From the NCBI GenBank assembly GCA_963810935.1, contig CAWEPK010000008.1:1-64000 (forward strand): a stretch of DNA of 64,000 bases, written 5' to 3'. Position numbers and translations under genes: made by a program. Shown in pieces: positions 6 to 41,085 of this stretch (within the stretch, counting starts at the first letter, position 1; each line of letters opens with the position of its first letter). Below the pieces are notes generated by a model. It was not told the origin of the DNA, did no database searches, and saw only the letters and a list, made by a program, of their open reading frames with translations. This stretch comes from an uncultured delta proteobacterium. Lineage in GTDB: Bacteria; Desulfobacterota; Syntrophorhabdia; Syntrophorhabdales; WCHB1-27.

Positions 6-1313
6 GTGAAATACGTGATCGTCAACGCGGACGAGGGCGACCCCGGCGCCTACATGGACAGGAGCTTGCTCGAAGGCAACCCGCATGCGGTGCTTGAGGG
101 CCTGACCCTGGGGGCTTATGCGATAGGCGCCCACGAGGGCTACATATACGTCCGCCAGGAATACCCCCTCGCTGTCGAAAACGTCAACATGGCCATAAAG
201 ACGGCGGAAGAAATGGGCCTCCAGGGCAAGAACATCCTGGGTTCCGGCTTCGACTTCGTCGTCAAGGTACACAGGGGCGCAGGCGCCTTTGTTTGCGGCG
301 AATCGACCGCCCTCATGACCGCCATCGAAGGCAGGGCGGGAGAGCCCAGGCCCAAGTATATCCGGTCCAATATCGTCGGCCTCTGGAGCAAGCCGTCCGT
401 CCTCAACAACGTCGAGACGTGGGCCAACGTCCCGCTTATCATCAACAACGGCGCCGACTGGTTCACGCAATACGGCACGGAGACGAGCAAGGGCACCAAG
501 ATATTCTCCCTTGTCGGCAAGATAACGAATACGGGTCTCGTCGAAGTGCCTATGGGCACTCCTCTGAAGGAGATCATTTACGACATAGGCGGCGGCATAC
601 CGAACGGCAAGAAGTTCAAGGCCGTACAGACGGGCGGGCCTTCGGGCGGCTGCCTGCCTGAAGACGCCCTTGACCTGCCAGTCGGCTTCGACGGGCTGAC
701 CAAAGCAGGCTCGATGATGGGCTCCGGCGGCATGATCGTCATGGATGAAGATACCTGCATGGTCGACGTCGCCAGGTACTTCATGGAGTTCCTCACCGAC
801 GAGTCGTGCGGCAAGTGCGTACCCTGCCGTGAGGGCATGAGGCAGATGCTCAAGCTGCTTACCAATATCACCAAGGGCAAAGGCAAGGAAGGCGACGTAG
901 AGACCCTCGAGGCGCTCTCCGAGACTGCCATAGAGGCGGCCCTCTGCGCGCTCGGTAAAAGCTCCCCGAACCCCTTCCTCTCAACGCTTAAATACTTCAG
1001 GGACGAGTACGAGGCGCACGTTAAAGAGAAGCGCTGCCCCGCCTTGTCGTGCAAGGAGCTTATCAACTTCTACATCGACCCCGCGAAGTGCAACGCCTGC
1101 ACCACCTGCGCCAGGAAATGCCCCTCGGAAGCGATTATAGGGGGGAAGAACCTCATCCATATGGTAGATCAGGAAAAGTGCACGAAATGTGGAACGTGCT
1201 TTGAAGTCTGTCCTCCCAAGTTCCGCGCGGTGACCAAGATATCGGGCGTCCCCGTTCCGCCGCCCCTTACCGAAGAAGCGAGAAAGATAGTCAGGGAGGC
1301 TAAACAGAAATGA
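6..1313 (+). CDS. NuoF/HydB-like NADH- and FMN-binding Fe-S subunit with C-terminal 2x[4Fe-4S] (5'-truncated by the window edge)
   Basis: [22 protein letters not shown] and [12 protein letters not shown] motifs; two CxxCxxCxxxCP motifs. Confidence 0.9.
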
Positions 1314-1918
1314 GTGAGATCGTCTTCCAGATCGACGGCAAGGAAGTAAAGGCGACCGAGGGACAGACCGTCCTCGAAGTAGCGCAGGCGAACGGCATAT
1401 CCATCCCGACCCTTTGCTGGCATGAGAAGCTGGAGCCCTTCGGGGCCTGCCGGCTCTGCATAGTCGAGATAGAAATAAAGGGCTGGACCAAGCTCGCCGT
1501 CTCCTGCGTCTATCCTGCCGAGAAGAATATAATAGTGCGCACCCGGTCCGAGAAAGTAGACAGGATACGCAAGATGATCCTGGAGTTGCAGCTTGCACAT
1601 GCGCCCGACGCCTTCATCCTACAGGACTACGCCAGGGAATACGGGGCGGACAAAAACCGCTTCGAGAAGGAGTCTTCTTTCTGCATCCACTGCGGCCTTT
1701 GCATCCGTTACTGCAACGAGGTCAAGAAGGCAAACGCCATCGGCTTCGTGGACAGGGGCATCCGCAAGGAGATAAGCTTCATCCCAGACATAGCGGCCAA
1801 AGAATGTTGGAACTGCAAGGAATGCTTCCCCCTGTGCCCGACCGAGGCCCTACAGGCGGCCTACGTGCTGGTCGAGGCGCTGGCGGGGTTTCCGAAAAGA
1901 AACGGCGCAGGAGAGTAG
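1310..1918 (+). CDS. 2Fe-2S/4Fe-4S protein resembling the NuoG/HydA N-terminus, with no catalytic domain
   Basis: [27 protein letters not shown] and [12 protein letters not shown]; overlaps the upstream stop. Confidence 0.85.
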
Positions 1919-1975
1919 GACGGGAAGGGTTGCCGCTGACGTGGCAGGGTCCGGGGAGGAGAGGCCCCGGATAAG

Positions 1976-2407
1976 ATGAAAGTCATAGTCGTCGCAGGCG
2001 CCCGGTCCAAAATCGGCAAGACACACCTTGCCAGGGCGCTGTGCAACCTCCTTCCGGGCGCAGTCCGCATCAAAATCGGCCATCACGAGCGGAAGAAGAA
2101 CGCCGTCGATGACGGCTACCTGTATCCGATGGGCACGGGTTTTGCCCGCATCGCCTCCGACCACCCCGACGCGGACTTCCTCATAATCGAGAGCAACGGG
2201 ATACTCGAAGAGATCAACCCCGACTGCACTATCTACCTTCCCGCCGACGACCCGAAGCCGTCTGCGGCAATCGCTATGGAGAAGGCCGACATAATCCGGG
2301 GGACGCGCGTTTCCGCCATCACAATCTCTCTTCTGGCGAAGCGCCTGGAGTGCGACGAGTCGCTTGTCGAGGAAATTATAAAACTCTCCAATGCCATGAA
2401 AGAATAA
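1976..2407 (+). CDS. Small hypothetical P-loop protein
   Basis: GARSKIGKT Walker A-like motif and FLIIES Walker B-like motif. Confidence 0.6.
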   Translation: MKVIVVAGARSKIGKTHLARALCNLLPGAVRIKIGHHERKKNAVDDGYLYPMGTGFARIASDHPDADFLIIESNGILEEINPDCTIYLPADDPKPSAAIAMEKADIIRGTRVSAITISLLAKRLECDESLVEEIIKLSNAMKE

Positions 2408-2421
2408 TGCCGCTTGCTGCT

Positions 2422-3468
2422 TTACTCCAGATAGCCCTTTTGCGGCATAAGGTCAAGCTGCGTAAGGACATCGCCTGTCGCTGCGATCATCTCTTGCGGT
2501 ATGCGGACCCCGGCATGGAGCATCGGGCCTTCCTTCTTGCGTGCCGACGGCCCGAATGCAAAGAAGTGGTCTATCGCCTTATTCGCGTTCGTGAATGCGT
2601 TGCCGCCGGCCATGTCCTGCACCGTTGCGAAGACCCGGTCGAACGCGAAAGTCACTTTTTCGGACGCCTCTGCCGCCGCAGATAAGCGCCCGCCTGTCGC
2701 GGCCTCGACAATGGCCGATAGTTTTTCGGCGAAGCAGTTGGCCGTGCTCAGGAGGAACCCATCGTAAGGGCCGCCCCCTTCCTTAAGCCAGCCCGCATAG
2801 CTCCCTTCGGCCCCCCGCGTAAGGAAGACCCCGCCGCTGTCGACGCCCGATAAGGCCACTGCGTCGCTCCCGCTCGTGTCTTTGAAGAAGACCAGATTCG
2901 GATATTTCTTTACGAGGCCGGCGAAGGTCTCCGGCGCTACCTCGTTCTCCGTCACCTGCGGGAGCTGGTAAAGGGCGGTAGGCAAACCCTTATCGAGGAC
3001 TGCGGAGAGTCCGGCCGCAATATCATCCTGAGTGAGCGCGTTGCCCTTAGGCGGGCAGACTGTGAAAGCGGCGATGCGAGCGGCCGCGAGGTATTCGGCT
3101 TTCTCTTTCTTCCCGGTTATCGCCGACGCGAGGGCCGCGATCCGGTCGATCTGCTTTAGCATAGAGGCGGCATCCGGCTTGAGCACTCCCGCGAGCAGCG
3201 CAAGGCCATCCTTTTGGGCACGGACAATTGCGAACCTCAAAAGCTGTTCCTCTTCATCATCGCGCAGCTCCCAGCCGTCGCCGGTCGTTCCCGGCACCAG
3301 GTAACCTTTTACCCAGCGGCCGATGTGGCCCAGGTGCGCCGACATGCGGTCAAAATTGATGCGGACCGCATCGTCGTAATGCGTCAGGAGCGGGCACCAC
3401 AGCCTTGGTATCCCCTCCGGAAAAGGCCGTGACATAAGCTCCCTGCGCGTTTCCGTAACATCGCCCAT
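2422..3468 (-). CDS. Dihydrodipicolinate synthase-family aldolase/dehydratase
   Basis: PGTTGDG, LYQLPQVT and FFKDTSG (Schiff-base Lys). Confidence 0.8.
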   Translation of the reverse strand: MGDVTETRRELMSRPFPEGIPRLWCPLLTHYDDAVRINFDRMSAHLGHIGRWVKGYLVPGTTGDGWELRDDEEEQLLRFAIVRAQKDGLALLAGVLKPDAASMLKQIDRIAALASAITGKKEKAEYLAAARIAAFTVCPPKGNALTQDDIAAGLSAVLDKGLPTALYQLPQVTENEVAPETFAGLVKKYPNLVFFKDTSGSDAVALSGVDSGGVFLTRGAEGSYAGWLKEGGGPYDGFLLSTANCFAEKLSAIVEAATGGRLSAAAEASEKVTFAFDRVFATVQDMAGGNAFTNANKAIDHFFAFGPSARKKEGPMLHAGVRIPQEMIAATGDVLTQLDLMPQKGYLE

Positions 3469-29420: not shown

Positions 29421-30062
29421 CTATCTTGCGGCCTTGAAGGTAATGATTACGAGCGTGCCGTCAGGCGGAAGCACTTCCCTGTTGCCCATGAGGGAAACTT
29501 CTTTCCGCGACTCGATGGCCCCGTAGGTATACGTCGCGTTGCTAGTTATGCCGACCGGGCAACTGTCCAGGCACATGAGGCAGCCTGTCTTCATGTCCAT
29601 CGCTGCCTGGAGGTTCCCACCGAAACGGATAACGAGCGGCTTGCCGCTGCTGTCCTTGATCGCCTCGTCGATGCGGTAGACCTTCGGCGCGCCTTTCCAC
29701 GTCACGAAGACGTCGAGCCTGTCCCCCTGGACGTGGGTCTTCTCTTTGTTGTCCCACGTCACGTTGTTCCCCGGCGTCAGGCCGAGCTTCACGAGGGCGT
29801 CGTAAAAGGGCTTCGGTTCCGCAAAGGCGGCAAAGACCGATTTGCCCCCATTCGACCCTCCCTTGAAGACTACCCCGTGCCGGGTCGTCTGAACGAGGTA
29901 CTTTCCGTTGACCTGGGCGAGGACGGAGACGCTACGGGCTTTCATATCGATGACGAGCGGGTTGTTTGGCGTGGGGCCTGTCTCCTGTGAGAACGCGGGT
30001 ATCGCCGTAAACGCCGCGAGCAGGGCGACGGCCAGGGCCCATACGAAAAAGTGTTTCTTCAT
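29421..30062 (-). CDS. YdjY-family exported protein
   Basis: Signal peptide; TRHGVVFKGGSNG and GCLMCLDSCPVGITSN. Confidence 0.75.
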   Translation of the reverse strand: MKKHFFVWALAVALLAAFTAIPAFSQETGPTPNNPLVIDMKARSVSVLAQVNGKYLVQTTRHGVVFKGGSNGGKSVFAAFAEPKPFYDALVKLGLTPGNNVTWDNKEKTHVQGDRLDVFVTWKGAPKVYRIDEAIKDSSGKPLVIRFGGNLQAAMDMKTGCLMCLDSCPVGITSNATYTYGAIESRKEVSLMGNREVLPPDGTLVIITFKAAR

Positions 30063-30117
30063 ACTTGTTCCTCCTGGTGACTTGGTTTTGTCTTTTTGTC
30101 GGGTATCTGCACGGCTC

Positions 30118-31977
30118 TCATACAAGGTCGTCCTTTCCGTGCTTTGCCTTGTAGCGCCTGTAGAGCAGGGGCAGCACCGAGACGAGGACGATAAGGACGA
30201 GGCCGATGATAAACGTGAGGGAGACCTTGCCGCGCGCAAGGTCGAGGAGAGAGCTGGAAAAAACGATAAACGCGATGCAGGCGGGCAACATGCAGAAAAA
30301 GGTGGCGATTGCATATTGGCGGAAGCCGATGCTGGTCAGCCCGAATGCATAGTTGAGGAGGTTGAACGGAAAAATCGGGACCAGGCGCGTGAAGGCGACG
30401 ACCTTCCATCCGTGTTTCTCCACCCCCTCGTCGAGCCTCTTCCACCTGGGACTACTGAGGTGCTGCGCCACCCATTCGCGCGCGAGGTAGCGGGAGACGA
30501 GGAAGGCGACGCAGGCGCCCGCCGTAGCGCCGATTATCGCATAAATGACGCCCCAGAACGGCCCGAAGATGATGCCTCCGACGACAGTGATGGGCGTCCC
30601 CGGCAGGAAAAGGGCGGGGGCTACCGCGTAGATGATTACATAAATGACGGGCGCGAGGGCGCCATACCCTGCTATCAGGTTGCGGAGGGTTTGCTGGTCC
30701 AGGTATCGGGAGAGGCCGGCGGTCTTTACTACTGCAATGGCTGCCGCCACAAAGAGCACGAACAAAAGGAGCTTTGCCATGCCGCCTTTCTTCTGCGGCT
30801 CCTTACCCGTGAAGGTGCGCTCCCTGGAGACCGCGGCGGGTACGTTCTCCTTGAACCATTTCTTCAGCCTGAGCCGCTTCCAATAGGTGAGGGGAGGCTT
30901 TGCTACCTTCGCTCTGCCGTCGGGATCGGGCCCGTCATCCCAGAGGATATCGAGGATATGCGCAGCAGGGGCGAGCTTCGAGAGCATATTTGCGCAGCCC
31001 GCGCAGTAAGTGATGACTTTTTTTCCGACGGCTTCGGTCCGTCGCCGCCTGCCCCAGACCGCCGCAAGCTCGGGAGCAAGGGCGCCGACCGCCCCGCCTT
31101 CGCCGCAGCAAAAGGTCCGGCTGCCGGTGTGCTCCATCTCCATGATTGCCCGGCCTTTGTTCCCGATCAGCTTTCGGACCGACCTGTGCATCTCCTCATC
31201 GAACCGCACTGCACACGGGTCGTGCACGGTGACTGCCTCTCCGGTCAGCCCGGCGCGCCCCCCGTCGCCGCAGTCTTCGGCGAGCACTTCATATAGGCTC
31301 CGGATCGAAAGACCCGTGCCGTAGCGGACGAACATCCTATAGCAGTTCGGGCAAGCGACGATGACGCGCGTAACGCCATGCGCGGCGAGGTAGCCCCTCA
31401 TCTCCGCGAACATGGCGTTGAAATGGTCCTCTCTGCCGAGGTCGTGAGAGGGTTTCATACAGCAATCGAGCACTATGCCGATGGATGGGAGCTTTTCTTT
31501 CAGGCGCTTGTAGACGAGCTTGACCTTTTCGGAGCGTGTGCCGGCGAGCGTGCAGCCGGGAAAGAAGACCGTATCGCAGCCTGCCGGGAGCGCATAATAC
31601 GAATACTTGCGGGAAGTGCCGCGCCTTTCGTATCCCTTCAGGACGGCGTGCTCCGGATAGTCGCCTCTACCCTGCCTCACGGCCTCTCTGCGCATCTCCA
31701 AAAAGAGGCGCGCCGGGTCGATCTTCGCCGGGCAGACCGCGGTGCAGAGGCCGCAGAGGCTGCATTCGAAGGGCAGGGCCAGGTCCTCTTTCCGCAAGGC
31801 GGGGTCGTACCGGTCCGCTATCTCTTTGGGTTTGCCGTGTTTCTTGAGGAAGGCGCACTCTTTCCGGCAGAGGTCGCATTCAATACAGGCGGTGGAGACC
31901 AGGCCCAGCTCTTCCTGCATTGTCGCGCTAAGCCCGGTTGTTTTGTCCGGGGAGCGCACTTTCGGCTTTGCGGCCAT
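30118..31977 (-). CDS. Fe-S/CCG-domain oxidoreductase fused to a TVP38/VTT (DedA-like) membrane domain
   Basis: CIECDLC, CSLCGLCTAVCP, FFPGC, HDPC and CCGEGG; C-terminal RLVPIFPFNLLNYAFG. Confidence 0.85.
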   Translation of the reverse strand: MAAKPKVRSPDKTTGLSATMQEELGLVSTACIECDLCRKECAFLKKHGKPKEIADRYDPALRKEDLALPFECSLCGLCTAVCPAKIDPARLFLEMRREAVRQGRGDYPEHAVLKGYERRGTSRKYSYYALPAGCDTVFFPGCTLAGTRSEKVKLVYKRLKEKLPSIGIVLDCCMKPSHDLGREDHFNAMFAEMRGYLAAHGVTRVIVACPNCYRMFVRYGTGLSIRSLYEVLAEDCGDGGRAGLTGEAVTVHDPCAVRFDEEMHRSVRKLIGNKGRAIMEMEHTGSRTFCCGEGGAVGALAPELAAVWGRRRRTEAVGKKVITYCAGCANMLSKLAPAAHILDILWDDGPDPDGRAKVAKPPLTYWKRLRLKKWFKENVPAAVSRERTFTGKEPQKKGGMAKLLLFVLFVAAAIAVVKTAGLSRYLDQQTLRNLIAGYGALAPVIYVIIYAVAPALFLPGTPITVVGGIIFGPFWGVIYAIIGATAGACVAFLVSRYLAREWVAQHLSSPRWKRLDEGVEKHGWKVVAFTRLVPIFPFNLLNYAFGLTSIGFRQYAIATFFCMLPACIAFIVFSSSLLDLARGKVSLTFIIGLVLIVLVSVLPLLYRRYKAKHGKDDLV

Positions 31978-32119
31978 TCCATCACCCCTGTTCTTTAGCT
32001 TACAGGCCGCCCGTACGCGCTTCCGTTCAGCACGGGCACGCCGCCGTTCTATTGTCTTTCTCGATTACCTGTTTTTGCCTTCCGACCTTCGACTTCCCGG
32101 CCGTAGGCTATGGACGGCC

Positions 32120-32215
32120 CTATCGGCGCCGGGCGGGGAAGGTGGAGGGGCTCATTGAAGGTCGCACGGACCTCCACGCAATCGATCAGATCGACATTTT
32201 GCTTAGATAGAGCAC
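32120..32215 (-). CDS. Putative selenocysteine leader peptide D (MLYLSKMSI-U-SIAWRSVRPSMSPSTFPARRR)
   Basis: SD GGAGG; GTG 32215; TGA 32188-32186; then 10 nt and GGAGGTC-CGTGC-GACCTTC; TAG 32122-32120. Confidence 0.7.
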
Positions 32216-32372
32216 TCTATGAAACCTCCATTGCCATCAAAGTATAACTAGGTTATTAGTATCATACTGCGGTGGAAGAATCAAGGGAAGGCTGCGCAGG
32301 ATAGGCTCATGTGCCTTTAGCGACTGTGCGAGGTTTGTAATTAGATGCGCCCGGCGCGCGGCGATTTTTTAA

Positions 32373-32401
32373 TTGACATGACGGGTAAAGGGGTTTAAGT
32401 T
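32373..32401 (+). promoter_or_regulatory. sigma70 promoter for the porin leader
   Basis: TTGACA-N17-TAAGTT. Confidence 0.65.
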
Positions 32402-32433
32402 TAAGAAAATTTGGGTAGGAAGGTGTGTGCGCA

Positions 32434-32517
32434 ATGGAAGACGACCCTGGCGGTCATATACAACTCGGTTGGAGCGGTGGACATGCTGCAGCTTCCGGGT
32501 GTCGTCGGACCCTCTGA
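32434..32517 (+). CDS. Putative leader peptide MEDDPGGHIQLGWSGGHAAASGCRRTL
   Basis: SD AGGAAGGT; first 22 nt identical to the mgtA leader. Confidence 0.65.
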   Translation: MEDDPGGHIQLGWSGGHAAASGCRRTL

Positions 32518-32725
32518 GAGTTCCGACCACTCCCGGTCCGGATAGCGTCTCCTCCGGGAGAGGATCGTATCATGTATTCCCCAAACCACTCTTCTGACTG
32601 GCTCCAGCCATAGAAACAAAATATGAATTTGCTGGTATCAGCGATCAACCTGCGGGCAGCATGCCGCTTATCGGCGTGCCGTTCAAGTCTGTGAGATATG
32701 CCGTCCGCCCGCAACAGAAGGAGAC

Positions 32726-34105
32726 GTGGAAGTGCGATTCTGCATTCGCCGGAAGACAGGCTTGTTCATTCTGGCCCTGGGCGCCCTCGCGGCGCTGGCG
32801 GCTCCCGGCCTCGTGCGCGCCGCCGACCCCCAGTCCTCCCTTCCCCCCTGGTTCCCCCAGCTCTTAGGCGCACAGGTAAACGGGGTCTACCAGAACTCCC
32901 CTTCCTTCCATAGCCCGTACACGGGAGACAAGAGCTTCATCTTCGATCATAGCTTCAAGCAACAGTTGACCCATGTCTACGGCCTCTATTTAGGCTCCCA
33001 GATAACACCTTCACTCCAGGCATACGGTGACTTCGAGATGTTTCGGGGGTCGGGCATAAGCAACGGCATTGGTTTGGGCGGTTTCAGTAATGCGGACGTC
33101 ATAAGGGCAGGGCCTGCCAATTTAGGCCAGGAGCCCTACCTTGCCCGCCTCTATGCCAGATACGTCATCCCCTTATCGAATGCCGTGACGGACCCGGTAG
33201 AGAGGGGCATGGACCAGATACCGGGTAGCCAGGCTGCGGACCGCATAGAGATAAAGGCAGGCAAGCTCGCCCCTACGGACGACTTCGACCAGAACCGCTA
33301 TGCCAATAACGGCCGCACGCAGTTCATGAACTACGACTTTTTATTTAATACGGCCTGGGACTATGCATCCGATACAAGGGGATACTCCATAGGCTTCTCC
33401 GCCGCTCTTGTCCATCCCACGTGGAGGCTTATCTTAGGAAGCTACCAGGAGCCTACATCCAGAAACGGCATGAACCTGGACAATAATATCTCCAAGGCCA
33501 GAGGGGACCAGATGGAGCTTGACCTGGCGCACTGGGAGAAGGGCCCCGTAGTCCGCCTTTTAGCCTTCAGGAACGAAGGGAGGATGGGCGACTACAGGGA
33601 CGCCATCGCCTTAGGTGCATTAACAGGTAACGTACCCGACACCACCCTCAACGGGCGGCCCGGCCACGTCAAGTACGGCTTCGGCTTAAACATAGAGCAG
33701 CCCCTTGCCAATGACGGGGACACGGGCATCTTTGCAAGGTTCGGCTGGGCCAACGGGAATAACTCCAACTGGTCCTATACCGAATCCGACAGGCACGCAA
33801 GCACAGGCGTCCAGATAAGCGGCAAGAACTGGGGCAGGCAGGAGGACCAGGCAGGTCTGGCCTTCGGCCTGAACGGCATCACGTCCTCCCATCAGCACTA
33901 CCTCCAGCAGGGAGGCATAGGCATGCTCGTAGGGGACGGGACGCTGAACTACGGCCTGGAGCAGGTGACGGAGGCCTACTACAGGATACAGGTAGGCAGG
34001 TACGTGCAGATAAGCCCCGACTTCCAGTACATCTGGAACCCTGCCTACAACAAAGACAGGGGGCCGGTGCAGGTCTACGGGATGAGGATGAGGGTGTACT
34101 ACTAA
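32726..34105 (+). CDS. OprB-family outer-membrane porin (MnoP-like divalent-cation porin subgroup)
   Basis: Signal peptide; FDQNRYA...TQFMN...AWDYASDTRGY, EAYY and SPDFQYIWNPAYNKDRGP. Confidence 0.8.
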   Translation: MEVRFCIRRKTGLFILALGALAALAAPGLVRAADPQSSLPPWFPQLLGAQVNGVYQNSPSFHSPYTGDKSFIFDHSFKQQLTHVYGLYLGSQITPSLQAYGDFEMFRGSGISNGIGLGGFSNADVIRAGPANLGQEPYLARLYARYVIPLSNAVTDPVERGMDQIPGSQAADRIEIKAGKLAPTDDFDQNRYANNGRTQFMNYDFLFNTAWDYASDTRGYSIGFSAALVHPTWRLILGSYQEPTSRNGMNLDNNISKARGDQMELDLAHWEKGPVVRLLAFRNEGRMGDYRDAIALGALTGNVPDTTLNGRPGHVKYGFGLNIEQPLANDGDTGIFARFGWANGNNSNWSYTESDRHASTGVQISGKNWGRQEDQAGLAFGLNGITSSHQHYLQQGGIGMLVGDGTLNYGLEQVTEAYYRIQVGRYVQISPDFQYIWNPAYNKDRGPVQVYGMRMRVYY

Positions 34106-34164
34106 CTACCGGGTGGTTGGTGGTGATAAAGGCAAAGGCGGATGTTGTGGCGGGGTTTGGACTC

Positions 34165-34286
34165 GCCGCATGGAGGATACTCCCTCTGCGGCGCACTGTT
34201 CGCCTTGCGCCCTACGACGTACCTGCGTACGCCTCCGGGCGGCAAGGCTCCCATTGCATCCGCACATGAAGCATCCTCCATGCGGC
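34165..34286. repeat. MITE/REPIN-like long inverted-repeat element
   Basis: 14-bp perfect terminal IR GCCGCATGGAGGAT / ATCCTCCATGCGGC with nested internal IRs. Confidence 0.6.
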
Positions 34287-34370
34287 TCCTCCGACCACGG
34301 CTGCAATTGGACCGAGGGCCAATTGCAGCAACTGCGGGTGGGAAGTAATTGTAGGGCGGCTATTTACTTC

Positions 34371-34399
34371 CGCCATTCCGGCGGAAGCCGGAATCCAGG
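34371..34399. repeat. REP-like palindrome
   Basis: ATTCCGGC-GGAA-GCCGGAAT followed by CCAG. Confidence 0.5.
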
Positions 34400-34431
34400 G
34401 TTGAGGGGCTGTGGAGCGGCCCTGAGGCTCG

Positions 34432-35241
34432 TTATTTTTTTTGCGCTGCCTTTGAGATAGCTACCCGTATCGCGAGGCAATCGTACACCACACGGTCGGC
34501 CTGGTAGACGACGGTTCCCCGGCTCACTACGCGCCACCCTCCGTTTTCATAAACGCCGTTGGACGCAAGCGCTTCGATGAGGCCGGGTGCGGAATCGAGG
34601 GATTCCACGAGACCGGGGTTCTGGGCAAGGACCACGTATTTCATGCCTGGGGCAGTCACCAGGGTCAGGGGCTCGATCAGAAGGCTCGACAAATCAGGCG
34701 CTACCTCTTCCGCGACAGTGGCCCTGGCCTGGAGCTGGATCATCCTCGCCCTGGTGTCGGGCCCGGCCGTTTCCTTCGCGGAGCTTATGAGATCGAGGAG
34801 GTCGTCCCGGACCTCGTTCAACTCCTTGACAGAGCGCCACTTCTCAGCCCCTTCATAGGCCGTGAGGGCCTTGGCCAGCATGGAGACCTCTCTCAGGTAG
34901 TGGTTCCGCTGGTTCGCGGGCACGAGATACATGGCGATGACAGAGACCGGGACGCCGTCGGGAGCGCCGTAATCGATCCCTGTCGGGCTCCAGCCCACAA
35001 CGCACATCAAGTCTTCTTCGAAGGGCACCCGCGCGTGCGGGCATGCCCAGCCTTTTCCGATTGACGTGTTGAACGAGGTCTCCCTCGACATTACCAGTCC
35101 CACCACATCGGTCCCGGAGGGCACTGACGGGATTGCTTCGAGGATGTGGGCGAGGACGCGCAGGGCGTCATCCTTGTCATTGTCGGGCAGCTCGATCAGC
35201 CTGCCTTCCTGAAGTGCGTCGAGAAGGGTGTCCATAATCAA
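34432..35241 (-). CDS. PTS EIIA(Ntr/Fru)-type domain protein with a C-terminal extension
   Basis: RE...TSIGKGWACPHAR and GIDYGAPDG; overlaps the mgtA stop. Confidence 0.8.
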   Translation of the reverse strand: MIMDTLLDALQEGRLIELPDNDKDDALRVLAHILEAIPSVPSGTDVVGLVMSRETSFNTSIGKGWACPHARVPFEEDLMCVVGWSPTGIDYGAPDGVPVSVIAMYLVPANQRNHYLREVSMLAKALTAYEGAEKWRSVKELNEVRDDLLDLISSAKETAGPDTRARMIQLQARATVAEEVAPDLSSLLIEPLTLVTAPGMKYVVLAQNPGLVESLDSAPGLIEALASNGVYENGGWRVVSRGTVVYQADRVVYDCLAIRVAISKAAQKK

Positions 35242-37955
35242 TAACCTCCGTACCGTTTAAAGAACCACGTTTTGACGAGGTGCGTCAGGGTGGCGTACGA
35301 AAAGAGGAAGAAAGCGATCCATGCCCAATAAATAGGCGGCAAAGGCACAAACCCCAAGGTAGGCGCGAACGACGAATAGGGCAGCCAGGCGCCGATAGCC
35401 ATCACGAGGATCGTCATGAAGGTCATCGGCATGGACGCGTGGCTGCCTATAAAGGGTATCCGGCGGGTCCTGATGATGTGGACTATCAGCGTCTGGGTCA
35501 GAAGGGATTCCACGAACCATCCCGTATGGAAAAGCCTCGCGGCGGCCTCGCCCGCCAAAGGCCCCGCGCCTGCATAGCCCCGGCACCCGAAAAAGAACCA
35601 CATCAGGGCAAAGGTCGCGTAGTCGAAGATCGAGCTAACCGGCCCTATGAACACCATGAAGCGTTTTATATTGGCTATGTTCCACTTGAGTGGTTTTGTG
35701 ATCTGCTCGGGGTCAACGCTGTCTGTCGGTATGCCGGTCTGGGAAAAATCGTAGAGCAGGTTGTTCAGAAGCACCTGTATGGGCAGCATGGGCAGGAAGG
35801 GCAAGAGGTAGCTGGCGCCGACTACGCTGAACATGTTCCCGAAGTTAGAACTTGCTCCCATCCGTATGTATTTCACTATGTTGGCAAAGACCTTCCGGCC
35901 TTCGATGATGCCCTCGGCGAGAATCAGCAGGCTTTTCTCAAGAAGCACGATGTCCGCCGACTCCTTGGCGACATCGACTGCCGAGTCGACTGATATGCCT
36001 ACGTCTGCCGCCCGGAGGGCCGGCGCATCGTTGATCCCGTCTCCCAGGAACCCTACAACGTGCCCGTTAGACCTGAGGTTGCGGACGATCTCCTCCTTTT
36101 GCGTCGGGGTAAGCTTGACGAAGACATCGGTCTCCCGCACGGTCCTGGAGAAGTCCTCTGCCGACATGGCGGATAGCTCCCCGCCTGTAATGATGGTCTC
36201 TGCCAAAAGGTCGACGTCCCTGCACACCTTTTGCGTGACCAGATAGTTGTCCCCGGTCAGCACCTTCACTTTTACGCCTGCCTGGCTCAAAAGGTCCAGC
36301 GCTTCCGCGGCCTCGGATTTCGGAGGGTCGAAAAATGCGATATACCCGAGGAGGATCATCGCCGATTCGTCGCCGGCCGTGAAAATGCTCTTGTCCCTGG
36401 GAAACTCACGGTATGCGATGCCCAGCACCCGGAAGCCGTCCGTGTTGAGCCTGTCGACCTCCTCGAACAGGTCTGCCCGGATCATTGGGATCAGAGGGTA
36501 CACCTCATCGCCGATCTGGTAGTGGGTGCAGCATGCGTAGATTTCCTCTACGGCCCCTTTGCAGATGAGGACGTTGTCGCCCTCGTAATCGACGACGACC
36601 GACATACGGCGACGCTGAAAGTCGAACGGCAGCTCGTCCACGAGGGTGCAGTCCCGCTCCACGTCGAGGTCCGCGTGCTCGAGCACGGCGCGGTCGATCA
36701 GATTGCGAAGGCCCGTCTGGTAATAGCTGTTCAGGTACGCGTAGGTCAGCACGTCGGTGCTCGGATGGCCGATGATGTCGACGCTGCGCTCCAGCACGAC
36801 CTTGTCCTGGGTGAGAGTACCCGTCTTGTCGGTGCAGAGGATGTCGATGGCGCCGAAGTTCTGGATCGAAGGAAGGCGTTTGACGATGACCTTTTCCTTA
36901 GCCATGGCGAGGGCGCCCTTGGCCAGGTTCACCGTTACGATCATGGGCAACATCTCGGGGGTAAGGCCGACCGCGACCGAAAGGCCGAAGAGAAGGGCTT
37001 CCAGCCAATCGCCCTTGGTCATGCCGACGATGAAGAAGACGGCGCAGACCAGGACGGTCATGTACCTGATCATGAGCCAGGTAAAGGAACGGACGCCCTG
37101 GTCGAAGCTAGTTTCTTCCCTCTCCCCCGCCAGCCGCTCGGAGATAGCCCCGAAGATAGTGTGCGCCCCGGTGTTTATCACAAGCCCCCGGGCGGAGCCG
37201 CTGGTGGCCGTGGTGCCGAGAAAACAGGCGTTCGGCAGCTCCAGGGCGGAGTGGCGCGGGACGTCTTCGGCGTCCGCTGTTTTTTCCACCGCCATCGACT
37301 CGCCGGAGAGGGCCGATTGGCTGACAAAAAAGTCTTTCGTCCAGAAGAGGCGCAGGTCTCCGGGGATGAGCGACCCTGCCTGGAGTAGCACCACGTCGCC
37401 GGGCACGACCTCGGATATCCTTATCTCCACCGCAGCCCCGTCTCTGAGTACGACGGTCCGTGACTGCACGCGTTTCCCAAGGGACTCGACGGCACGGTTC
37501 GAGCGGTTGTCAAGGACGTAGGAAAGGCCTACGCTGAGAAGGACCATCGCGCCGACGATGAAAGACGACCTGATCTCGCCGATGACGCCGGAAACAACGG
37601 CTATAACCAGAAGCTGGATAACCAGGGGGCTTTTGCAGCGATGGAGAATGTCTGCAAAAAAACCGACGTGCCGTGTGTGGGAAAGCTCGTTGGGCCCGTA
37701 TTCGTCCAGCCGGCGTTCGGCCTCTTCGCTATTGAGGCCCCCCGGGGTCGTCCCAAGGACCTTTACGGCCTCGGATACAGGCACTACGCAAAGGTCGATG
37801 AGGCGGCGTTCATCCTCCGGGGTATTGCGGTGATTATTGGCCGCTTGAGGGTCGCGCCTGGACTTATTCGAGAGGTTGGTAAATACGCCCTTGTTCGTTT
37901 TGCAGCCTCCGCTCTTCCCCGGGTGCGCGACGGACCCCGAGACAGGCATGAACAA
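35238..37955 (-). CDS. mgtA: Magnesium-translocating P-type ATPase
   Basis: AVGLTPEMLP, DKTGTLT, PFDFQRRRMSV, GDGINDAP, SSNFGNMFS and FHTGWFVES. Confidence 0.93.
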   Translation of the reverse strand: MFMPVSGSVAHPGKSGGCKTNKGVFTNLSNKSRRDPQAANNHRNTPEDERRLIDLCVVPVSEAVKVLGTTPGGLNSEEAERRLDEYGPNELSHTRHVGFFADILHRCKSPLVIQLLVIAVVSGVIGEIRSSFIVGAMVLLSVGLSYVLDNRSNRAVESLGKRVQSRTVVLRDGAAVEIRISEVVPGDVVLLQAGSLIPGDLRLFWTKDFFVSQSALSGESMAVEKTADAEDVPRHSALELPNACFLGTTATSGSARGLVINTGAHTIFGAISERLAGEREETSFDQGVRSFTWLMIRYMTVLVCAVFFIVGMTKGDWLEALLFGLSVAVGLTPEMLPMIVTVNLAKGALAMAKEKVIVKRLPSIQNFGAIDILCTDKTGTLTQDKVVLERSVDIIGHPSTDVLTYAYLNSYYQTGLRNLIDRAVLEHADLDVERDCTLVDELPFDFQRRRMSVVVDYEGDNVLICKGAVEEIYACCTHYQIGDEVYPLIPMIRADLFEEVDRLNTDGFRVLGIAYREFPRDKSIFTAGDESAMILLGYIAFFDPPKSEAAEALDLLSQAGVKVKVLTGDNYLVTQKVCRDVDLLAETIITGGELSAMSAEDFSRTVRETDVFVKLTPTQKEEIVRNLRSNGHVVGFLGDGINDAPALRAADVGISVDSAVDVAKESADIVLLEKSLLILAEGIIEGRKVFANIVKYIRMGASSNFGNMFSVVGASYLLPFLPMLPIQVLLNNLLYDFSQTGIPTDSVDPEQITKPLKWNIANIKRFMVFIGPVSSIFDYATFALMWFFFGCRGYAGAGPLAGEAAARLFHTGWFVESLLTQTLIVHIIRTRRIPFIGSHASMPMTFMTILVMAIGAWLPYSSFAPTLGFVPLPPIYWAWIAFFLFSYATLTHLVKTWFFKRYGGY

Positions 37956-38092
37956 TGAAACCCCTTGCCGGAAAGGAACTTAACCGGCCGGGAAAATGTT
38001 CTTTACTTCAGCGTCTGTTGCTTATCTGTCTTAGGAGCGAATGAGGAGAGTTTTCCCCTGATGCCGCCCGGGCTCAGGGGGAGATAAGAAGG

Positions 38093-38173
38093 CTAACGAA
38101 TCTTCCCGTAGTGCTGAGGAGGAGCGGCTTCGCTCCGACCAAACCAAGTAGGACCGCCAGGGTCGTCTTCCAT
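38093..38173 (-). CDS. Putative MgtL-like leader peptide MEDDPGGPTWFGRSEAAPPQHYGKIR
   Basis: Lies between the promoter and mgtA; SD GGAAAGGT; shares 22 nt with the porin leader. Confidence 0.7.
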   Translation of the reverse strand: MEDDPGGPTWFGRSEAAPPQHYGKIR

Positions 38174-38215
38174 CAAGGACCTTTCCATAGTGTAGTATTA
38201 CAACAACTCCTTCGA

Positions 38216-38244
38216 ATTCTAATTCATATAAGCTCTTTGGTCAA
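38216..38244 (-). promoter_or_regulatory. sigma70 promoter for the mgtA leader
   Basis: TTGACC-N17-TAGAAT. Confidence 0.7.
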
Positions 38245-38317
38245 CAAAAAAATAAGCCCTTGCCTTCATTAATGTTATCTTTTTATAATACTTATCGCGG
38301 CGAGAGGGAGGGAGCCC

Positions 38318-38791
38318 TTGGACGAAGGGATATCGATAACGATTGATGCGAGCGTCTCGGAAGTCATCGAGAAAAGAGGCATAAGGCGGGAAGACGTCGT
38401 AATGGTCCTGGCATACGCCCAGGAGACAGGGAATTTCTTCGCAAACGGCTCGGGGGAGCGTCGCCTGGCCTATCGGAAGGCGGAAAAAACGACGTTCTGG
38501 GTTGAATACGCGAGGGAGGGGGACGGGTACAGGGCCCTGTGCGCCTACTCCCATCGTATGGAGATACTGGAAGGGCTCAACATGCCGGCCGGGCCCAGGG
38601 ACGAGAAAATCGATTGGCTCTGCGCCCGGTGCCGTAAGGCCCTGGAGTGGGCCACCGTGAAACTGGCGTACCTGGACGAGACCTTCGCTGCGGACATCCC
38701 TGCCTGCCCCTCCTGCCAGCGTCCCCTCGTGAGCGAGGAGAACGCAGTCGGGAAGATGGCGCTGGCCGAAAAAATGCTGGAAGACAAATAA
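38318..38791 (+). CDS. Small redox protein with two CxxC motifs (DVU_1557-like C-terminus)
   Basis: TFWVEY...AYSHRM, then CARC...CPSC...EKMLEDK. Confidence 0.65.
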   Translation: MDEGISITIDASVSEVIEKRGIRREDVVMVLAYAQETGNFFANGSGERRLAYRKAEKTTFWVEYAREGDGYRALCAYSHRMEILEGLNMPAGPRDEKIDWLCARCRKALEWATVKLAYLDETFAADIPACPSCQRPLVSEENAVGKMALAEKMLEDK

Positions 38792-38804
38792 AGGAGCCGT
38801 TCCG

Positions 38805-39257
38805 ATGGAGCGCGTTATCAATCTCAGCGGAAGAGAAATGGACATCATGGTCCTTACGCATAAAGGCTACTGTTGCAGCCAGGTGATGGCCATCCTCATG
38901 CTGAGGGAGATGGGGCGGGAAAACCCCGACCTCGTAAGGGCCATGGGCGGCCTCTGCTACGGTATCGGGTACTCGGGCGAGATGTGCGGGGCCCTGTCGG
39001 GCGGGGCGTGCCTTATATCCCTCGTTGCAGGCAAGGGCGAAGACGGCGAATCCCCCAAAGAAAAGATGCCCCTCATGCTGAGCGAGCTTGTCGATTGGTT
39101 CAGGGAGAAGGTGCAAGGCCCTTACGGGAGCGCGAAGTGCGACGATATCCTGGGGTCGAATGCCGACAAAAGGCCCTGCATGGCCCTTATCGCGGAAACA
39201 TACGACAAGACAATGTCGATCCTCAAAGCGCATGGGATAGGACCGGCTGCGGCCTGA
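38805..39257 (+). CDS. C-GCAxxG-C-C family putative redox protein
   Basis: GYCCSQ and MCGALSGGAC. Confidence 0.8.
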   Translation: MERVINLSGREMDIMVLTHKGYCCSQVMAILMLREMGRENPDLVRAMGGLCYGIGYSGEMCGALSGGACLISLVAGKGEDGESPKEKMPLMLSELVDWFREKVQGPYGSAKCDDILGSNADKRPCMALIAETYDKTMSILKAHGIGPAAA

Positions 39258-39327
39258 ACAGTCGTCCACTTTACGTGGTCTGGAGACCGGCCTTATGTTA
39301 CCTTCAGGGGCACCCGAAGGAGCGGAC

Positions 39328-40974
39328 ATGGTAACGCTCGACGAGAACGCGCTGCTAGTCCTTAGTAAAAGGTACCTCGTCAAGGACGAGACAGGGGAGC
39401 CGGTCGAGACGCCGGACGGCCTCTTCCGCCGTGTCGCGGAGCACGTGGCCGCTGTCGAGGACGGCTATCCGTCCGGGCGGCGCCGCGAGATGAGCGACGC
39501 TTTTTACCGGATGATGGCAGATCTCGAATTCCTGCCAAATTCCCCGACGCTCATGAACGCAGGCCGCCCCCTGGGGCAGCTTGCCGCATGCTTTGTCCTG
39601 CCCGTTGAAGACTCCCTCGACTCGATCTTCGACCAGGTAAAGCTGACCGCCAGGATCCACCAGACAGGCGGCGGCACCGGTTTTTCCTTCTCCCGCCTCA
39701 GGCCGAAGAACGACGTGGTGAGGTCCACGACGGGGGTGGCGAGCGGTCCGGTCTCCTTTATAAGGGTCTTTAATTGCGCGACCGGCGTCATGAAGCAGGG
39801 CGGGACGAGGCGGGGCGCCAACATGGGAGTGCTCAGTATCGACCATCCCGACATAGAGGAGTTCATAACGGTCAAGAAGGACCCGGCGGAGCTTACCAAC
39901 TTCAACCTGTCCGTCGCCGTGACGGACGAATTCATGCAGGCATTCGAGGCGGGCCGCGCATTCCCTCTCGTTAATCCCAGGACCGGCAAGGAATCGACGA
40001 AGGTAGACGCACGAGGACTCCTGATGTTGATTGCGGAATCCGCCTGGTCCTCCGGCGAGCCCGGAGTGATCTTTATCGATACGGTCAATAAGGCTAACCC
40101 CACGCCCCGCATAGGAGAGATTGCCGCCACCAACCCCTGCGGAGAGCAGCCGCTTCTGCCCTATGAATCATGCTGCCTTGGGTCTATCGACCTGGCTAAG
40201 ATGGAAAGAGACGGGGACGTGGATTGGGACAGGCTAAAGCGGCTGACGCACCTCGGCGTGCGGTTCCTCGACAACGTGATTGACGCGAGCGTCTATCCGG
40301 CAGAAGAGATCGCCGCCATTACGAGGTCGAACAGGAAGATCGGCTTAGGCGTCATGGGTTTTGCGCACCTGCTGATCCGTCTCGGCATACGGTACGACTC
40401 GGATGAGGCCGAAAAGCTGGGCGGCAAAATAATGGAATTCATCCAGGCGGAGTCGAAGGCAGCGTCCGGTGAGCTTGCGGGGGAGCGCGGCCCGTTCCCT
40501 AATTTTAAGGGGAGCGTGTGGGACAATAAGGGCCTCCCCCAGCGGAACGCAACCACGACCACGGTGGCCCCTACCGGCACACTGAGCATTATCGCAAATA
40601 CGTCGAGCGGCATAGAGCCGATCTACGATGTGGCGTACAGCAGGCTGATCCTCGGCGGGATAGAAGTGCACGTGGACGACCCGCTGTGGCGCAGTATCAA
40701 GGGCCGGCCCGACGCCGCGAACGCTATGGACAGGCTTTTCCGCAAGGCTTACCAGGTAGCCCCCATCGACCACCTGCGGATACAGCGGGCCTTCCAGGAG
40801 CACGTGGACAACGCTGTGTCGAAGACCATCAACCTGCCCGAGACGGCCACGCCGGACGAGGTGCTCGACATCTACGTCCAGGCCCACCGGATGGGCCTGA
40901 AAGGCACTACGATCTTCAGGAACAAAAGCCGCGATTACCAGATACTCTCCTGCGGTACGCACCAGATCTGCTGA
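39328..40974 (+). CDS. nrdJ: Class II (B12-dependent) ribonucleotide reductase, compact form
   Basis: PNSPTLMNAG, QLAACF, ATNPCGEQPL, VAPTGT and NAVSKTIN. Confidence 0.9.
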   Translation: MVTLDENALLVLSKRYLVKDETGEPVETPDGLFRRVAEHVAAVEDGYPSGRRREMSDAFYRMMADLEFLPNSPTLMNAGRPLGQLAACFVLPVEDSLDSIFDQVKLTARIHQTGGGTGFSFSRLRPKNDVVRSTTGVASGPVSFIRVFNCATGVMKQGGTRRGANMGVLSIDHPDIEEFITVKKDPAELTNFNLSVAVTDEFMQAFEAGRAFPLVNPRTGKESTKVDARGLLMLIAESAWSSGEPGVIFIDTVNKANPTPRIGEIAATNPCGEQPLLPYESCCLGSIDLAKMERDGDVDWDRLKRLTHLGVRFLDNVIDASVYPAEEIAAITRSNRKIGLGVMGFAHLLIRLGIRYDSDEAEKLGGKIMEFIQAESKAASGELAGERGPFPNFKGSVWDNKGLPQRNATTTTVAPTGTLSIIANTSSGIEPIYDVAYSRLILGGIEVHVDDPLWRSIKGRPDAANAMDRLFRKAYQVAPIDHLRIQRAFQEHVDNAVSKTINLPETATPDEVLDIYVQAHRMGLKGTTIFRNKSRDYQILSCGTHQIC

Positions 40975-41085
40975 CGAAAGAACCTGCGTAATAATTATAA
41001 GAGATGCCGTCGCGCCGGAGGTGCCTCCGCCTCCGCTTCCCGCTGATCTTGTCTGCCTGAAGCAGGGTACATACATTAGGCGTAA

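Follow-up and report, generated by a model that had tools for sequence, protein, structure and literature searches.

A uORF-bearing leader with two alternative RNA folds ahead of magnesium transporter and porin genes in the Syntrophorhabdales: a candidate Mg2+-responsive attenuator

Introduction

The locus examined here raises the question of why an mgtA unit and a porin unit, lying on opposite strands of one contig, begin with the same 22 nucleotides (nt), and of what signal such a shared leader may read. The stretch of DNA concerned (hereafter the window) comprises 64,000 nt from an uncultured delta proteobacterium of the order Syntrophorhabdales (Desulfobacterota; assembly GCA_963810935.1, contig CAWEPK010000008.1, positions 1 to 64,000 of the forward strand), in which the two units are each preceded by a short upstream open reading frame (uORF) that begins M-E-D-D-P-G-G. 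A preliminary description had proposed that this leader encodes a Mg2+-sensing arrest peptide, or alternatively constitutes an RNA motif, that it is distinct from MgtL and that it defines a Mg-starvation regulon. As developed below, the leader is a well-supported, undescribed cis-regulatory family, and we lean, with somewhat better than even confidence, towards the view that it is a translation-coupled, Mg2+-responsive attenuator, which would work like enterobacterial mgtL while being unrelated to it in sequence.

In Escherichia coli, EPDP following the initiator Met of MgtL causes translation to abort in the first six residues; N-termini otherwise enriched in D, E or P behave in the same way, and the effect is stronger when Mg2+ is low or bL31 is missing (bioRxiv 10.1101/2021.02.02.429294). 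For the leaders of mgtA and corA, a further study describes how a uORF that is translated efficiently at high Mg2+ leads to an OFF fold, in which a stem is flanked by pyrimidine-rich Rho utilization (rut) regions, and how poor uORF elongation at low Mg2+ leads to an ON fold that buries the rut regions (PMC11552253). As judged from text searches of the literature, in a scope confined to papers open without subscription, uORF-based control by Mg2+ has been worked out only in enterobacteria, and these searches returned no description of a MEDDPGG leader.

Results and Discussion

Range of the leader family

Within the window, the 22-mer ATGGAAGACGACCCTGGCGGTC is present in two exact copies, one opening the porin unit (32434-32455, forward strand) and one opening the mgtA unit (38152-38173, reverse strand), precisely as had been described. 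No further match was found in the window at up to 3 mismatches (0 expected from shuffles), and the whole genome (4.06 Mb, 21 contigs) holds no copy beyond these two. The string GGT(T/C)GGAGCG, said to follow at an equal offset, was recovered as GGTTGGAGCG and GGTCGGAGCG, each starting at nt 34 of its own uORF, and translation gave uORF lengths of 27 codons ahead of the porin and 26 codons ahead of mgtA, again in agreement with the earlier account.

A search of the clade for MEDDPGG uORFs, as the preliminary description had suggested, shows that the leader is a recurrent element. With up to 2 mismatches allowed, the pattern occurs 37 times among the 96 genomes of the order, in 29 of them, and 23 of these occurrences carry the identical 22-mer; together with one extra copy that has 4 mismatches (MEGEPGG) and adjoins another leader, and one extra copy that is frameshifted (L142), the total in the Syntrophorhabdales reaches 39 copies in 29 of the 96 species genomes, with further copies on metagenome contigs. 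The leader is carried by 18 of the 21 other genomes of the family to which the window belongs and by 10 of 69 genomes of a second family, and by 0 of 5 in two small families. When the mgtA leader was compared by BLAST with 60 relatives, the matches started exactly at the ATG and spanned 22-60 nt. Beyond the order, a sample of 401 genomes of the phylum gave just two matches, both within coding sequence; one of these is a P-loop gene that reads the motif as K-T-T-L-A-V in a different frame. When 185,579 species genomes were scanned with the exact pattern, 21 stretches were returned, which include the cultured Syntrophorhabdus aromaticivorans UI, the remainder being metagenome-assembled genomes (MAGs) titled Syntrophorhabdales/Syntrophorhabdaceae, "delta proteobacterium", Syntrophaceae or Syntrophobacterales. 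In a metagenome scan, for which the start codon's AT was dropped from the pattern, 73 loci were recovered, among them one leader with a GTG start; among the metagenome matches listed, about 24 are coding-sequence matches without an ATG or a Shine-Dalgarno (SD) motif, and the rest are leaders. As far as sequence matches can tell, the family is confined to the order Syntrophorhabdales, no true copy having been found elsewhere. The string K-T-T-L-A-V is Walker-A-like and accounts for chance matches to the motif in P-loop NTPase genes (L030, L046 and about 24 metagenome loci, e.g., L073, L085 and L095), for which reason pattern searches for the leader best include a check for ATG and SD.

The RNA downstream of the shared motif can also be recognized by itself. 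A covariance model (R1) was built from a single class, using a 25-sequence alignment that begins at nt 28 and thereby excludes the conserved block at the uORF start, and its search of the order returned 29 places, of which 28 lie directly behind an intact motif; this number is a lower bound, as R1 with strict filters misses the porin-class leaders and four leaders of the L014 type. The 29th match is the frameshifted copy L142 (G010:C3:3950-7300; motif at about 250-272), in which a 1-nt insertion in the motif cuts the uORF to 5 codons. L142 is a second mgtA-type copy in one relative, its ATPase gene is split into overlapping reading frames (539-1609 and 1446-3203), and it represents either a decaying paralogue or assembly indel errors. 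A cmscan search with Rfam 15 (4227 families) gave nothing relevant in positions 30000-41000 of the window (E<=1) or in 7 other leaders (E<=0.1); the enterobacterial mgtA leader is the Rfam family Mg_sensor. The proposal that the leader is distinct from MgtL and marks a Mg-starvation regulon is thus supported, in that it lacks an Rfam match and recurs ahead of genes for MgtA, NRMT-type Nramp, MgtE-type and OprB proteins.

Start, frame and probable translation of the uORF

Loss of the ATG or of the frame in orthologous copies had been named as grounds for refuting the proposal, and the comparison does not refute it. Of 68 distinct leaders, 67 open with ATG and one with GTG, the frame stays open, and an SD-like motif is located 4-17 nt 5' of the start in 67. 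The stop codon in frame 0 falls at a median of nt 78 (interquartile range 75-81), giving 24-28 codons in 55 of the 68 uORFs. A stop before nt 60 is encountered in frame 0 in just 1 of 68 leaders, as compared with 31 and 34 of 68 in the other two frames, and the unconserved nt 21-38 contain 0 frame-0 stops versus 9 and 24 stops in the others. In L023, and in L038 from S. aromaticivorans, the first strand of the downstream RNA domain (segment a, below) is read in a different frame, yet 21-22 codons remain open, which argues that beyond codon 8 it is translation that is kept and not the peptide. Taken together, these patterns provide indirect evidence that the leader uORF is translated, with its SD, start and frame being maintained.

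At its N-terminus the peptide itself is conserved, with an acidic residue (D or E) at positions 2-4 in 37 of 38 leaders and P5 in all 38. In both uORFs of the window, E, D, D and P make up four of the six residues after Met, and at least four D, E or P residues among these six is the criterion for intrinsic ribosome destabilization (IRD). MEDDPGG is by sequence a candidate for IRD, which in E. coli acts with a near-empty exit tunnel and is enhanced at low Mg2+, as stated in the report cited above. However, IRD is a property of the amino-acid sequence and does not predict invariant synonymous sites, such as are described next.

The 23-nt block at the uORF start

Conservation runs from the A of the ATG to nt 23, and the flanking positions (-1, -2 and 24-26) are near-random. 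Each position of this block is kept in 31-38 of 38 leaders, and the third positions of codons 2-7 are kept in 36, 31, 36, 37, 37 and 37 of them, respectively; the third position of codon 8 is free. The codons concerned have genomic usage frequencies of 0.34 (GAA), 0.72 (GAC, used twice), 0.17 (CCT), 0.57 (GGC) and 0.09 (GGT), the product of which is about 0.0015, so that the codon usage of the genome does not explain their choice. A search of the 96 genomes with the peptide-degenerate pattern ATGGANGANGANCCNGGNGG returned 36 places, 32 of which are known leaders with essentially the same codons. The 4 extra matches were considered as leaders with synonymous codons and were rejected, as all lie inside genes. 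The examination of synonymous variation that had been recommended therefore has a mixed outcome: a translated frame is kept, but the third positions of codons 2-7 are frozen, and the block is accordingly constrained as nucleic acid besides being translated. For the proposed arrest peptide this means that the open frame does not refute it, whereas the invariance of synonymous sites implies that a peptide alone does not explain the 22 nt.

Several internal features of the block may bear on this constraint. It holds a short dyad, GACC-N5-GGTC, predicted to form a 4-bp mini-hairpin (GACC/GGTC), and the natural variants fall mostly in the loop or preserve wobble pairing; it also contains a 7-mer direct repeat (GACGACC / GGCGGTC, 9 nt apart). 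In addition, nt 13-22 resemble the S5-b segment of the downstream domain, from which it follows that both could pair with segment a'. The dyad, the repeat and the base-by-base conservation irrespective of codon position could be taken to indicate a protein-binding site, that is, a DNA site for a roadblock repressor or an RNA site for a regulator, such that a protein and not the ribosome would carry the signal. However, the arms of the dyad are just 4 bp long and the spacing of the repeat is off the helical phase; the block begins exactly at the start codon, in every case 7-14 nt behind an SD, the open frame behind it is left unexplained, and no candidate regulator gene is linked to the loci that were read. 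We consider a protein-binding site to be very improbable.

Two alternative folds of the leader RNA

The block is followed by approximately 10-14 variable nt, after which the string GGAGC starts at nt 38 in 62 of the 68 leaders. From alignments and folds, segments a, a', S3, P4, S5, b, S6, S7 and c were defined, P4 being a small hairpin that usually contains the uORF stop. Two mutually exclusive folds can be drawn. Fold II consists of the helix a:c, which spans 90-140 nt, together with a':b, S3:S5 and S6:S7, and would create a rod that buries two pyrimidine-rich tracts. Fold I consists of two local hairpins, a:a' and S5:S6, the latter with b as its loop, and S7 and c are unpaired. The 5' strand of a:c is GGT(T/C)GGAGCG. 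The peptide and the RNA motif, offered previously as alternatives, each find support but are not alternatives, as the leader comprises both a uORF and an RNA in which this string is part of a covarying helix.

The helix a:c shows compensatory changes between classes of leader (GATTGGAGC/GTTCCAATC, GGTTGGAGCAAAG/CTTTTGTTCCAGCC, GATTGGGG/CTCCAGTC and GTGGAA/TTCCAC), and a':b is formed by GCCGCTC with GGGCGGC in the mgtA leader of the window and by AACCGCTC with GAGCGGTT in most leaders. Minimum free energy (MFE) folds of both window leaders include a:c. In a MAFFT alignment of 25 sequences from one class, fold II reached a covariation score of 0.206 as compared with 0.170 in shuffled alignments (0 of 500 shuffles reached it), and fold I did not rise above the shuffles. 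A wider alignment was obtained with the covariance model (66 matches at 66 loci, with four spurious low scorers kept, giving 64 distinct rows). For fold II, 86.6% of cells are paired in these 64 rows versus 77.8% after shuffling, 24 of 32 pairs change on both sides, double-change cells number 190 versus 79.5±7.7, and the covariation score is 0.348 versus 0.213 (0 of 500 shuffles; slid controls 0.07-0.12), although, with an alignment fitted to this fold and with sequences that share ancestry, the shuffle counts overstate the support, which weighs against the attenuator reading, and are not to be taken as probabilities. The helix a:c covaries most strongly, with 8 of its 10 pairs changing on both sides. 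For fold I, 84.0% of cells are paired, double-change cells number 32 versus 15.3±2.7, and the score is 0.175 versus 0.147 (0 of 500 shuffles; slid controls 0.08-0.11). The porin class aligned poorly at c in the covariance-model alignment; RNAalifold applied to 13 porin-class leaders recovered a:c. The existence of two mutually exclusive leader folds is supported by these comparisons, for fold II by covariation and for fold I more weakly.

These data could also be read as a direct metal-sensing riboswitch, in which the 23-nt block and the domain from a to c would bind Mg2+ or another ligand and the uORF would read out or reinforce the fold. The near-invariance of nt 1-23, third codon positions included, the covarying helices and the presence of two alternative folds are in line with such a device, and whether the enterobacterial mgtA RNA folds in direct response to Mg2+ is itself still debated (PMC11552253). 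However, the frame, start, SD and stop position are maintained far beyond what is seen for the other two frames, conservation of the block sets in precisely with the A of the ATG, neither a pairing partner nor a tertiary contact was found for it, and no known riboswitch model matches, such that a direct riboswitch appears rather unlikely.

A model for Mg2+-responsive attenuation

Together, the uORF and the two folds allow the construction of a model of how the leader may act. This model proposes that transcription starts about 30-40 nt ahead of the uORF, which would have a good ribosome-binding site, and that the uORF, beginning M-E-D-D-P-G-G, runs for 24-28 codons into the two-fold RNA domain. 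When Mg2+ is ample, the whole uORF would be translated, and the ribosomes would melt a, a' and S3 and thereby favour fold I, whose exposed tract could admit Rho or another terminating or silencing step, so that the transporter gene is off. When Mg2+ is low, translation would stall or abort in the acidic, proline-containing first codons, the front edge of the stalled ribosome would end just short of strand a, and fold II could then form and allow transcription to read through. A ribosome with codons 5-7 in its P site would extend to about nt 28-36 and thus stop shortly before strand a, which lies at a fixed distance from the start. We infer that Mg2+ is the signal, that MEDDPGG causes stalling, which of the two folds is ON and that Rho provides the output.

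Several of the ingredients of the model can be located in the data. The genome carries a rho gene (700 bits). In place of the C-rich tracts that had been reported to follow the uORFs, there are two short stretches rich in pyrimidines and poor in G, one near +80..100 (C/G ratio 2.96) and one near +140..160 (2.49), so that this earlier claim holds in part only. The predicted unpaired probability of S7 and c rises from 0.42 to 0.56 when the region masked by the ribosome is extended from nt 1-35 to 15 nt past the uORF stop (19 of 22 leaders), a shift that follows partly by construction. Predicted accessibility of a generic window at +125..170 showed no difference between the stalled and the fully translated masks.

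The attenuator reading has to contend with a number of further observations. The pyrimidine tracts are short for a rut site, and the scan tool called no canonical intrinsic terminator in either window leader. Whether the mask was the stalled or the fully translated one made no difference to the predicted accessibility of the SD of the main gene (p = 0.65, 32 leaders). In the second family, four leaders (L014, L025, L034 and L037) keep the 23 nt and a closing helix but differ in the interior, as folded by RNAalifold. The synonymous sites of codons 2-7 are near-invariant, with no leader that uses alternative synonymous codons, and the variant cells of the block amount to about 8 synonymous versus 18 non-synonymous among 38 leaders, indicating that the peptide is kept no better than the RNA. 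When the 24 nt at the uORF start were paired by RNAduplex with the remainder of each leader, the best partners were scattered, none of them conserved. A sensor consisting of the peptide only does not account for the block, whose frozen synonymous sites it leaves unexplained.

A different division of labour may be envisaged, namely that the 23 nt are themselves the sensor. Here, the mRNA of codons 1-8, in or just ahead of an early-elongating ribosome, or the GACC/GGTC mini-hairpin, would read free Mg2+ together with the acidic, proline-containing nascent chain, and an exchangeable downstream domain would do no more than convert this event into read-through. This proposal is tentative and falls clearly short of being probable; if true, it would represent a composite ribosome-mRNA-peptide metal sensor, a class undescribed so far and independent of mgtL.

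The same parts could, in principle, operate by another logic or on another signal, as a trp-type attenuator with fold I as the ON state, or as a sensor of translation capacity, of proline or glycine supply or of EF-P activity. The segments a'-S3, S5-b, S6 and S7 display the 1:2, 2:3 and 3:4 topology of classical attenuators, and the tail after S5:S6 contains a U-rich run in some leaders (e.g., L035). However, a trp-type scheme assigns no function to a:c, the helix that covaries most strongly; the U-run is confined to some leaders and is absent from the window leaders and from the L013 class; and every identified downstream gene points to Mg2+ uptake. An arrangement of this kind is improbable in our estimation. 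The classical attenuators themselves (trp, his and pheST) resemble the present leader in that the first strands of the alternative hairpins fall within a short leader ORF and in that the stop codon lies about 10-15 nt ahead of the next hairpin, but the present leader has no run of one regulatory codon and no consistent terminator hairpin with a U-tract, and it precedes transporter genes instead of biosynthetic operons.

With regard to the Mg2+-responsive attenuator that we prefer, the closest likeness is to mgtL/mgtA: both have a uORF at the 5' end of the mRNA for a Mg2+ transporter, acidic and proline residues right after Met, and two mutually exclusive folds with pyrimidine tracts exposed in one and buried in the other (for the enterobacterial leaders, PMC11552253). 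In contrast to mgtL/mgtA, the present leader matches no Rfam model, begins with MEDDPGG where the enterobacterial peptide has EPDP / MEPDPT, occurs in the Desulfobacterota (Syntrophorhabdales), and is a single leader type serving mgtA, NRMT, MgtE-type and porin genes; it also has a long-range closing helix at a fixed distance from the start, and codons 1-8 are invariant as nucleotides. The lack of an Rfam match, the different peptide and RNA and the lineage together imply that it is not a member of the mgtL/mgtA family. The corL/corA system of Salmonella and E. coli is similar to the proposed logic in that uORF translation is inverse to transporter expression and OFF and ON folds govern the access of Rho; it differs in that corL has few acidic or proline residues (PMC11552253), and the sequences are unrelated.

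Ribosome-based sensing of Mg2+ has probably been reinvented here, on the analogy with the enterobacterial systems. If true, this would be an independent invention of mgtL-like logic in a distant anaerobic lineage. The roughly 70 natural variants would allow N-terminal acidic-proline peptides to be tested as a general ribosomal report on Mg2+, and the same set bears on the role of frozen mRNA bases and on how one sensor module may drive different output domains.

Downstream genes and the proposed regulon

The downstream gene was taken as the first open reading frame (ORF) of at least 90 codons behind each leader and was assigned with Pfam, the metagenome ORFs often being incomplete. Among 65 such ORFs, 28 are Nramp, 16 are MgtA-type ATPases, 2 are MgtE-type and 9 are OprB porins or ORFs of porin operons. 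The 36 leaders from species genomes contribute 18 Nramp, 10 MgtA-type P-ATPases, 4 OprB, 1 MgtE_N+PRC, 1 HMA_2 and 2 ORFs of no family; the 29 from metagenomes contribute 10 Nramp, 6 ATPase N-termini, 4 HMA_2, 1 PRC and 8 of no family. No corA gene was seen behind the leaders that were read. By these families, the leader set covers known Mg2+ importers and outer-membrane porins.

The Nramp proteins linked to the leader belong mostly to one clade of 439 aa, of the Mg2+-transporting NRMT type, which matches PDB 7QIA at 1e-61 as compared with 1e-16 for MntH structures. The entry 7QIA is cited in a paper on EleNRMT, a Mg2+-transporting relative of NRAMP. The leader was absent from 19 upstream regions read in an MntH-like Nramp clade of 413 aa, the single exception seen being L036; the upstream regions of this clade are short and lie beside a divergent gene. 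The link to the leader supports naming the 439-aa clade a Mg2+ transporter. In L143 (G003:C142:5400-5792), which is from the genus of the window, an NRMT-type Nramp is found 40 nt after an OprB porin, so that the porin leader there would drive a porin-NRMT operon. The genome of the window has no NRMT match at E<=1e-60, and the window ORF at 34113-34460, behind the porin, was considered as an NRMT remnant and rejected, having no similarity and no Pfam family.

Some leaders (L040, and also L086, L101, L133 and L136) have an ORF of about 100 aa of the HMA_2 (heavy-metal-associated-like) family between the leader and an OprB porin; in L040 this ORF (602-910) is followed by the porin (931-2421). 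The small HMA_2 protein could bind metal in the periplasm or the cytoplasm and so assist Mg2+ uptake. As an annotation, the regulon makes OprB-type porins and small HMA_2 proteins candidates for a part in acquiring Mg2+.

In other phyla, the M-box (ykoK) riboswitch is found ahead of mgtE, mgtA and genes for Nramp-related transporters. The M-box (RF00380) thus resembles the present leader in the set of genes downstream, but it has no match in the window and operates without a uORF. M-box searches scored in the control genomes of B. subtilis and L. lactis and in 1 of the 96 genomes of the order. This sole match (G014:C184:1030-1202) is in a MAG with 8% contamination, and the contig may be foreign.

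The two units of the window

On the reverse strand, the mgtA unit has a promoter at 38216..38244 (TTGACC-17 nt-TAGAAT), called by the scan tool with 10 of 12 matches, and relatives also carry a TTGAC -35 element about 55-65 nt ahead of the ATG. An SD-like GGAAAGG (38180..38186) precedes by 7-13 nt the uORF of 26 codons plus stop (MEDDPGGPTWFGRSEAAPPQHYGKIR; 38093..38173), which was defined by translation and by the test of frame maintenance. The near-invariant block, consisting of codons 1-7 and 2 further nt, occupies 38151..38173 as judged by conservation among 38 leaders; its nt 23 is C, where most other copies have A. The putative switching RNA domain, closed by helix a:c, extends over 38029..38145 (covariance-model match of 88 bits, E 1e-17; MFE fold; covariation), with segments a at 38129-38140, a' at 38121-38128, S5 at 38071-38084, b at 38063-38069, S6 at 38054-38060, S7 at 38043-38050 and c at 38034-38041. 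The mgtA gene itself, for a Mg2+-translocating P-type ATPase, lies at 35238..37955 (TIGR01524, 1064 bits against a cut-off of 611; NF011702, 1030 bits), its start being uncertain between a TTG at 37955 and an ATG at 37950. It is followed on the same strand by a gene for an EIIA(Ntr)/PtsN-like protein of 269 aa (34432..35241; PF00359, 3e-17; the TIGR01419 match is weak), which overlaps the end of mgtA by 4 nt and probably shares an operon with it. An in-frame ATG without an SD of its own is present at 38186-38188 (reverse strand), 15 nt 5' of the start of the mgtA uORF; the closest relatives (L071, L080 and L122) lack it.

On the forward strand, a candidate promoter of the porin unit, at 32373..32401 (TTGACA at 32373-32378, 17 nt, TAAGTT), was read from the sequence and aligns with the mgtA promoter. 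A sigma70 promoter had been claimed for each unit; this stands for mgtA, but the scan tool calls none for the porin unit, in which the -10 element is weak. Likewise, the SD claimed for each unit is represented in both leaders by an SD-like motif, but both are weak (AAGGTG at 32420-32425 for the porin, and GGAAAGG for mgtA), most relatives having AAGGAG. The porin-leader uORF of 27 codons plus stop (MEDDPGGHIQLGWSGGHAAASGCRRTL) occupies 32434..32517, with the 23-nt block at 32434-32456, and the predicted RNA domain extends over 32466..32609, the MFE fold giving the same a:c as RNAalifold on the 13 porin-class leaders. Segment a (32466-32475) would pair with c (32601-32609) over 9 bp, and S5, b and S6 are at 32530-32541, 32542-32552 and 32554-32563, respectively. 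The OprB-family porin follows at 32726..34105 (PF04966, 3e-32). Directly 5' of the -35 element of the porin promoter, at 32346-32369 (forward strand), there is a terminator-like hairpin with a T-run; most leaders have a T-rich stretch ahead of the -35 element, which may be a UP-like element.

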